Below are positions 10,667-11,964 of a DNA stretch of 11,964 nucleotides, piece by piece (position 1 is the stretch's first letter; every line of letters starts with the position of its first letter). The notes under the pieces were generated by a model. It was not told where the DNA came from, ran no database searches, and saw only the letters and a program-made list of their open reading frames with translations. The stretch is from Escherichia coli (lineage in GTDB: Bacteria > Pseudomonadota > Gammaproteobacteria > Enterobacterales > Enterobacteriaceae): NCBI RefSeq assembly GCF_003334255.1, contig NZ_QOWU01000082.1, one strand, 5' to 3'. The position numbers and the translations under genes are program-made.

Positions 10667-11581
10667 TCAAAATAGCCCGTTGCGTAATGCGTGTTCCAGG
10701 CTAATCCCGGGAAACCAATTAATATCTTCAGAAATACGGTTATTACTTGCCGACCAGTCGGCGTGGGTTAATTCACGAATTTTCGAGCGGGTCAGCATAG
10801 GTTCTTTACCTGCCAGGCGACTCAACGCGGTACTGATATCCGCAAGGCCGGTGAGTACCGGCAGAGGAATGCCAACCATTCGCACGGAACCGCAACGGGC
10901 GTCGGCGGCAAGTTGCTGTACGCGTTGCCAGTCATAGCCGCCGGCGACGCCATCGCATAATTCATAGGTTTGCGTCTGTATAGTTTCGGCGCTTAACCAC
11001 TGACCCACTGCTTGCGCGAAATCGGTGACGTGCAGAAAAGAGAGCTGTGTATCTGGCGCACCAAGTCGTGGCAGCAGGCCGCGCAGCATCCAGTCAAACA
11101 GCGGTTTTAACTCTTTATCGCCGGGACCATACACGGCTGTCGGGCGAAAAACGCCCAGCGTAATTTCGTCCGCCATTGCTGCCAGTCGTTGCTCGGCGAC
11201 GTATTTGGATTTTGCATACCAGGAGAGCTCGGGATGGCGCGCCGCCAGCGAAGAGATAAACAGAAAACGTTGGCAAAAGCCGCTCTCTTTTGCTGCTTGC
11301 ATCAGGCGCAGGCTGCCGTCAACGTTACAGCGGGTGAAAATCTCTTCTTTGTGCCCGCGCACTTGCCCGGCGCAATGGACCACTACGCTGGCTCCGGCAA
11401 CCAGCTCGCTAAGTGAATGAGTATCTTCCAGCGAACCGCGCACCCAGGTGAGATTATCATTGACGTGAGCGCGGGCAGTACGCGTCAATGCGCGAACGTG
11501 AAAGCCGCGGGCGAGCAGGTTATCGATAATATATTTACCGATAAACCCGGTAGCGCCCGTCACCGCGACAGTTTGATTCAT
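10667..11581 (-). CDS. NAD(P)-dependent epimerase/dehydratase-type extended SDR (putative reductase of the lipid pathway)
   Basis: 304-aa ORF. N-terminal Rossmann motif VTGATGFIG and catalytic YAKSK (YxxxK). ATG start overlaps the upstream stop (ATGA). Confidence 0.88.
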   Translation of the reverse strand: MNQTVAVTGATGFIGKYIIDNLLARGFHVRALTRTARAHVNDNLTWVRGSLEDTHSLSELVAGASVVVHCAGQVRGHKEEIFTRCNVDGSLRLMQAAKESGFCQRFLFISSLAARHPELSWYAKSKYVAEQRLAAMADEITLGVFRPTAVYGPGDKELKPLFDWMLRGLLPRLGAPDTQLSFLHVTDFAQAVGQWLSAETIQTQTYELCDGVAGGYDWQRVQQLAADARCGSVRMVGIPLPVLTGLADISTALSRLAGKEPMLTRSKIRELTHADWSASNNRISEDINWFPGISLEHALRNGLF

Positions 11582-11901
11582 GCCAGGGATTCCTGCACAT
11601 TAAGACTGGCAGCATAAGCCTTCTGATAACGTTTTTTCGCTTCCGCACGGGCAGGCTTGCCGGAGGACGTTCGGGGAATACTGTGGGGCGGCAACAGATC
11701 GATAGCCGCGGTCACGCCAAATTCGCTTTGGATCCGTGCCGCCAGCGCGTGGATAAGCTGCCCGCGACGTTCTTCGTCGCTGATCCGACACTGGATCTGC
11801 AAAATGATTTTTTCCTGGGCGGTAACAAAAGCAATCGCATCGCCAGAATGAATTTCCGGTTCCTGTTCCGCTATATATTCAATATCCGGTAATGACTCCA
11901 A
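11578..11901 (-). CDS. Adenylate-forming (ANL, AMP-binding) enzyme C-terminal subdomain encoded as a short ORF; possible acyl-ACP/acyl-CoA synthetase fragment or split gene
   Basis: 107-aa ORF ending ...LLPPHSIPRTSSGKPARAEAKKRY, which matches the conserved C-terminal lysine motif of ANL enzymes. It has only a TTG start (11901), no Shine-Dalgarno, and is closed 5 codons upstream by an in-frame TAA. Confidence 0.55.
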   Translation of the reverse strand: MESLPDIEYIAEQEPEIHSGDAIAFVTAQEKIILQIQCRISDEERRGQLIHALAARIQSEFGVTAAIDLLPPHSIPRTSSGKPARAEAKKRYQKAYAASLNVQESLA

Positions 11902-11902
11902 C

Positions 11903-11964
11903 TTATTGATAGTGTTTTATGTTCAGATAATGCCCGATGACTTTGTCATGCAGCTCCACCGATT
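11903..11964 (-). CDS. 3' end of a minus-strand ORF entering from beyond the window (partial); possibly the N-terminal body of the adenylate-forming enzyme
   Basis: Open frame across 11964 down to TAA at 11905-11903 (translation ...[19 protein letters not shown]), ending 1 nt before the TTG of the 107-aa ORF and in a different frame. Confidence 0.3.
   Translation of the reverse strand, partial: [19 protein letters not shown]

Follow-up and report, generated by a model that had tools for sequence, protein, structure and literature searches.

Insertion of IS1 into a chromosomal gene is textbook biology. The gene that concerns us here belongs to a cluster described in BL21(DE3), in which ECD_02850 to ECD_02854 are aca (yghO), aasR, epi, acpR and spt (Padilla-Gómez et al. 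2022, PMC9386255). AasR of C. crescentus is a specialised acyl-ACP synthetase that acts on AcpR and not on CoA, epi has been proposed to code for a keto-sphinganine reductase, and AasREc, AcpREc and SPTEc together give rise to 3-oxo-sphinganine in vivo (PMC9386255). The E. coli ligase (EcFAAL) has also been crystallised: all 562 residues of the intact product agree with PDB 3PBK (100% identity), an entry titled "Fatty Acyl-Adenylate Ligase", and the gene is a single ORF of 1689 nt (562 aa) in BL21(DE3) and in the compared loci L001 and L006, the latter from strain 23CRST030. In K-12 MG1655 the glcC-gss region is eroded by an insertion sequence, there an IS5 between yghO and a shortened yghQ; no aasR, epi, acpR or spt is present in K-12, nor are the LptF/G-like genes, and yghQ is incomplete.

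The stretch of E. coli DNA analysed here, 11,964 nucleotides long and called the window throughout, carries the same region, likewise eroded by an insertion sequence; in contrast to K-12, only aasR is damaged and the other genes are intact. We conclude that aasR (562 codons) has almost certainly been interrupted by IS1 within codon 460, an ordinary insertional gene inactivation. The present case does not differ in kind from IS1 gene inactivation generally, only one end of the element being visible here, and annotated genomes of other strains show this gene hit in a like manner.

Results

A short ORF at the right end of the window

The original prediction had singled out a 107-aa ORF as the small C-terminal subdomain of an adenylate-forming (ANL) enzyme, apparently separated at the inter-subdomain hinge from an ORF in another frame. 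The features at this end of the window are:

11578..11901, minus strand: 107-aa ORF with a TTG start, from the ORF list.
11578..11887, minus strand: remaining 3' part of the gene for fatty acyl-AMP ligase / acyl-AcpR synthetase (aasR, EcFAAL), nt 1380-1689 of the 1689-nt gene.
11888..11901, minus strand: IS1-derived head of the ORF, TTG GAG TCA TTA CC, giving M-E-S-L and two bases of the junction codon CCG (P).
11888..11910, minus strand: 23-bp right terminal inverted repeat of IS1, plus strand GGTAATGACTCCAACTTATTGAT.
11888..11964, minus strand: terminal 77 bp of IS1 (IRR end, IS1 nt 692-768), 100% identical to an annotated IS1A (L006 4437-4513).
11903..11962, minus strand: last 19 codons and TAA of IS1 InsB, the translation being identical to the end of the annotated IS1A transposase CDS; this is the "upstream ORF" of the original prediction.

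The observations from which that prediction set out were confirmed on the window sequence. The 107-aa ORF has only a TTG start, and no GGAG/AGGA-type Shine-Dalgarno sequence is present in the 15 nt 5' of it (AACACTATCAATAAG). Also on the minus strand, a second frame stays open from the window edge (11962) to a TAA at 11905-11903, leaving a single spacer nucleotide, 11902, before the TTG at 11901-11899; the minus strand at this boundary reads ...AAACACTATCAATAAGTTGGAGTCATTACCGGATATTGAATATATAGCG....

IS1 abuts the ligase gene within codon 460

Blast against an intact ligase gene aligned ligase nt 1380-1689 with window 11887-11578, and Blast against full IS1 aligned window 11964-11888 with IS1 nt 692-768. 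Over the 310 nt of the remnant no difference from the intact L006 gene is seen (100% identity), and the homology ends exactly at 11887. On a larger scale, window 505-11887 is 99.97% identical to the segment of strain 23CRST030 running from pitB to the fatty acyl-AMP ligase gene, and window 11886-11964 is 100% identical to an annotated IS1A end in the same strain. In the junction alignment the wild-type sequence, found in L001, L004, L006 and BL21(DE3), is ...TGGCCGCAGGATATTGAATAT..., while the window and L005 read ...AAGTTGGAGTCATTACC joined directly to GGATATTGAATAT.... A stop of ligase homology at 11887 followed by 100% IS1 from 11888 points to insertion, and not to a frameshift, a sequencing error or a natural split.

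In the right-hand element, insA/insB run in the same direction as the ligase gene; the remainder of the element lies beyond the window. Its terminal 77 bp show no difference from the IS1 elements of E. coli (IS1A/IS1B), either in the 23-bp inverted repeat or at the 3' end of insB. Inverted repeats of about 23 bp (GGTAATGACTCCAACTTATTGAT / GGTGATGCTGCCAACTTACTGAT) are present in the window as IRR at 11888-11910 and as IRL, belonging to another copy, at 55-77, and every IS1 annotated in loci L001-L006 has the same degenerate pattern at each of its ends. The annotated IS1A transposase matches NF033558 (IS1 family transposase), of which the window holds only the last 19 InsB codons. When window 10600-11964 was compared by megablast with 5,426 complete E. 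coli genomes, 4103 of them covered at least 80% of it, and the query matched at a median of 10 places per genome, a sign of a repeated element within it; the features annotated beneath the top matches included IS1 transposase genes.

The composition of the 107-aa ORF follows the junction. IS1 splits codon 460 (Q in GRIKDLIIIRGRNIWPQDIE), and the remnant holds the third base of that codon, residues 461-562 and the stop. The TTG lies in the terminal inverted repeat of IS1, as does everything up to two-thirds of the fifth codon of the ORF. IS1 and the junction thus contribute M-E-S-L-P and the ligase its residues 461-562, so that the ORF reads MESLPDIEY where the intact protein reads ...WPQDIEY. 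The TTG is a fortuitous start and not the start of a gene.

By gene order, the interrupted gene is aasR. We read the order yghO-FAAL-epimerase-ACP-spt in BL21(DE3), and as this matches ECD_02850-02854, the ligase occupies the position of aasR. Derivation of the remnant from the aasR locus is borne out by the 100% DNA identity over 310 nt, with nt 1380-1689 of the allele matching 3PBK, and by synteny with epi-acpR-spt, the neighbourhood being the same as that of AasR of BL21(DE3) (ECD_02851). Where EcFAAL/AasR is a complete enzyme, only residues 461-562 are encoded here, preceded by the five IS1/junction-derived residues, and the N-terminal adenylation domain and the A8 segment discussed below are missing from the window.

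The break lies inside the C-terminal subdomain

Against NF006624 (fatty acyl-AMP ligase, NCBIfam), a model of 567 positions with a cut-off of 600 bits, the intact allele scored 872 bits over positions 10-564. The 107-aa ORF scored 107 bits and covered only positions 471-564; it lacks the full two-domain protein and does not reach the family score. Crystallised FAAL constructs containing only the N-domain (FadD28, FadD23 and 5D6N; 3E53/3T5A, 8HCZ) stop aligning at query residues 445-450, which places the boundary between the N- and C-terminal subdomains at about 445-450. The break at codon 460 is therefore 10-15 residues inside the C-terminal subdomain and not at the hinge, where the original prediction had placed it, although that prediction was right in seeing the break close to the boundary between the subdomains. 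The residues preceding DIEY in the intact protein, ...GRIKDLIIIRGRNIWPQ, lie upstream of the break and are absent from the remnant. They include the GRIKD..GRN segment, which we take to be the A8 motif of ANL enzymes (GRxKD...GxN). IPRTSSGKPAR, presumably the A10 motif with its SGK lysine, is retained. The hinge/A8 motif and the A10 lysine thus do not occur together in one polypeptide here, only IPRTSSGKPAR remaining. The assignment of the ORF to the small ANL subdomain was accordingly right as to the C-terminal end that it matches, but that subdomain is incomplete.

Simple insertion or the edge of a deletion

As a variant of the IS1 explanation, the element could mark the edge of a deletion or replacement, the 459 N-terminal codons of the ligase gene being lost or no longer adjacent. 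The bases that matter here are:

11880..11887, no strand assigned: target bases abutting IS1, coding strand GGATATTG.

If the event was a simple insertion, GGATATTG would be one copy of the target-site duplication. The N-terminal fragments predicted for a simple insertion were sought by exact look-up. Those from the L006 allele with a 9-bp duplication and from the BL21 allele with a 9-bp or 8-bp duplication were absent, as was a predicted edge-truncated C-side product, and for the two alleles no predicted N-terminal fragment is on record in the assemblies carrying the 107-aa ORF. The missing products speak for a deletion edge, but such failed look-ups weigh little, since an exact allele is needed and pseudogenes often have no protein record.

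The L006 allele with an 8-bp duplication gave a single match, the Logan contig ERR4791188_251 (L007 4380-4413). In this contig, ligase nt 1-1387 abut the IRR-type end of a variant IS1 (GGTAATGACTCCAACTTACTGATAGT, also found at L002 8101) whose orientation is opposite to that of the window's IS1. Its boundary overlaps the C-side boundary of the window by exactly 8 bp (GGATATTG), as a target duplication would. The overlap may come from an insertion hot spot used more than once, or from a single composite insertion whose two outer ends are seen. Because the variant IS1 presents an IRR-type end in the opposite orientation, ERR4791188_251 is not demonstrably the partner junction.

Nearby junctions in complete genomes point in both directions. 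In three of the four kinds, unrelated DNA lies across the IS1: AR_0119 has an AAA-domain gene there, XJ5.2 has IS3 remnants together with a YmgB/AriR-family gene, and GPEC1201 has a gene of the inovirus Gp2 family. Against a deletion edge, EC21Z-078 and three sibling genomes that match identically show, 6 bp away, a clean simple insertion in which nt 1374-1382 are duplicated (9 bp). On this evidence a deletion edge in the window's lineage is a serious possibility, which we would place somewhat short of an even chance; under either variant, aasR is interrupted by IS1.

The junction is unlikely to be an assembly artefact

A further possibility is that the gene is intact and that an IS1 tail was wrongly attached at the contig end. 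The sequence is presumably a short-read draft: both window ends are exactly 77 bp of IS1, as one expects where a de Bruijn contig runs into a collapsed repeat, and the window looks like a whole short-read de Bruijn contig (k=77) broken at IS1 copies. A 77-bp run into IS1 is possible, however, only with junction-spanning reads, and misassembly is unlikely because a contig enters IS1 only if reads span the junction. Moreover, the join falls at the precise IS1 terminus (GGTAATG...), as transposition produces, and the same junction product recurs: the exact 107-aa product was found on three contigs of different sizes (9,419 bp, up to 11,995 bp) under three NCBI protein accessions, CAM3320195.1, CUK18329.1 and OWD32300.1. 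One of these contigs, when read, breaks inside IS1 119 bp in rather than 77. We regard misassembly as very improbable.

The exact right-hand junction occurs in none of the 5,426 complete E. coli genomes, in which only neighbouring, independent IS1 insertions were found, and the exact left-hand IS1 junction is likewise absent from all 5,426. With neither junction present, the source lineage is absent from that collection.

In a 90%-identity protein collection, the 107-aa ORF is grouped with a cluster of 2,585 members whose representatives are partial IS5 family transposases. Fragment or fusion proteins seem to have chained this cluster together artificially.

Frameshift and natural split

Two of the readings offered by the original prediction fare worst, and we give each next to no chance. 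A point frameshift, whether a real mutation or a sequencing error, that splits one ANL gene into two ORFs would account for two ORFs in different frames 1 nt apart, but it is refuted by the junction alignment: the upstream ORF is the C-terminus of IS1 InsB and not ligase, no ligase residues, GRIKDLIIIRGRNIWPQ among them, occur in any frame of 11888-11964, and DNA identity to the ligase gene falls from 100% to none at 11887/11888, the sequence beyond being 100% IS1. A naturally split adenylation enzyme with its C-terminal subdomain as a stand-alone gene, in keeping with an ORF that begins close to the boundary between subdomains and that three GenBank records call a "hypothetical protein", is refuted in turn by a start codon and first four codons that are IS1 repeat sequence, by the missing Shine-Dalgarno sequence and A8 segment, and by the intact loci examined, each of which has one contiguous 562-aa gene, crystallised as one chain, and not a stand-alone 107-aa gene. 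The original prediction had itself named an unrelated upstream protein, along with orthologs that carry a stand-alone 107-aa gene, as evidence against its reading. InsB is such a protein, and the intact loci examined have no such stand-alone gene. The pseudogene option of the prediction stands, the ORF being a truncated ANL-family remnant, by an IS1 mechanism that it had not considered.

Neighbouring genes and the left end of the window

Downstream of the remnant lie three further genes of the cluster:

10667..11581, minus strand: epi, NAD-dependent epimerase/dehydrogenase (ECD_02852 position), by profile match and synteny.
10387..10635, minus strand: acpR, specialised acyl carrier protein (ECD_02853 position), by synteny and PMC9386255.
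9215..10387, minus strand: spt, serine palmitoyltransferase (ECD_02854 position), NF047599, 599 bits against a cut-off of 500.

The cluster genes other than aasR are intact, with 5 mismatches to BL21(DE3) in 11,810 nt. At 11581-11578 the sequence ATGA overlaps the epi start codon with the ligase stop codon, which implies translational coupling of the ligase gene and epi that the IS1 insertion would disrupt.

Next to spt, acpR and epi, window 4258-9180 carries a full-length YghQ-like gene of the polysaccharide/lipid flippase type (449 aa), together with a 274-aa hypothetical gene, a YtfJ-family gene and paralogues that bear the annotations LptF and LptG. In K-12 these genes are absent or shortened. 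Their position suggests a dedicated export route for the lipid of the cluster.

The left end of the window is formed by a second copy of IS1:

1..77, minus strand: outermost 77 bp at the IRL end of a further IS1 copy (IS1 nt 1-77), 100% identical to L006 5128-5204.

This end reads GGTGATGCTGCC..., has the same orientation as the right-hand copy and lies 75 bp downstream of gss. Eight complete genomes have IS1 at nearby but different positions in the AT-rich gss-pitB spacer (window 78-200), and in strain 23CRST030 IS1 is inside pitB instead of in the spacer. The 11.8-kb segment from pitB to the aasR remnant is bracketed by direct IS1 repeats, which could allow its deletion or excision by recombination; that the directly oriented pair makes the segment a mobilisable or excisable unit is a lesser possibility.

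IS damage to aasR is recurrent

IS1 junctions close to that of the window were found in several other loci:

L003 3615, L004 3665, L009 2660, L010 2592 and L007 4388: IS1 junctions, equivalent to window positions of about 11870-11945.

In all, the ligase gene (1689 nt) has six distinct IS1 junctions at nt 1324-1397, a stretch of about 75 nt, though ascertainment is biased in that the search saw only junctions near the query. The carriers are seven complete genomes, one Logan read-set assembly and the window's lineage, represented by three draft contigs. No 75-nt segment of the gene is richer in AT than nt 1321-1395, which shares the top value, 61% against 47% overall. The NCBI pipeline annotates the IS1-hit ligase genes of other strains as incomplete pseudogenes. 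Damage of other kinds was also seen: FDAARGOS_1288 has an internal stop in the ligase gene and an IS1-truncated spt, and in strain 2014EL-1346-6 an IS1 between yghT and acpR replaces yghS through spt. Recurrent loss of aasR or its region through IS1, an internal stop or IS5 might reflect selection against the acyl-AcpR/sphingolipid-precursor pathway, over and above AT-rich IS1 targeting and relaxed selection, but we think this unlikely.

Discussion

On our reading, IS1 interrupts aasR within codon 460, co-directional with the gene, and an accidental ORF opens in the inverted repeat of the element and runs on through the last 102 ligase codons. From what is established for ANL enzymes, the enzyme would be inactive: the C-terminal piece has no A8 segment and no ribosome-binding site, and any product of it would depend on an accidental weak start codon and have an incomplete fold, while an N-terminal piece, if there is one, would lack the A10 lysine needed for adenylation. 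Such a strain would form no acyl-AcpR and hence, by this route, no 3-oxo-sphinganine.

Expression of epi-acpR-spt would probably be lowered as well, because the ligase stop overlaps the epi start, so that ATGA coupling is lost along with upstream translation, and because of IS1 polarity. IS1 fusion promoters are known in general (PMC9330008). At this junction, no IS1/target hybrid promoter or other sigma-70-like site was found at the scan threshold, so that nothing beyond read-through is indicated as a source of outward transcription of the remnant.

The finding bears first on annotation. The 107-aa "hypothetical protein" of the three GenBank records is an artefact of the IS1/aasR junction and should be annotated as a pseudogene, and the apparent split at the hinge tells us nothing about domain alternation in ANL enzymes. 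As to the biology of the organism, the lineage has probably lost the AasR step that feeds AcpR and serine palmitoyltransferase. In sum, the window provides one more example of the patchy, IS-driven erosion of a cryptic sphingolipid-type cluster in the glcC-gss region of E. coli.
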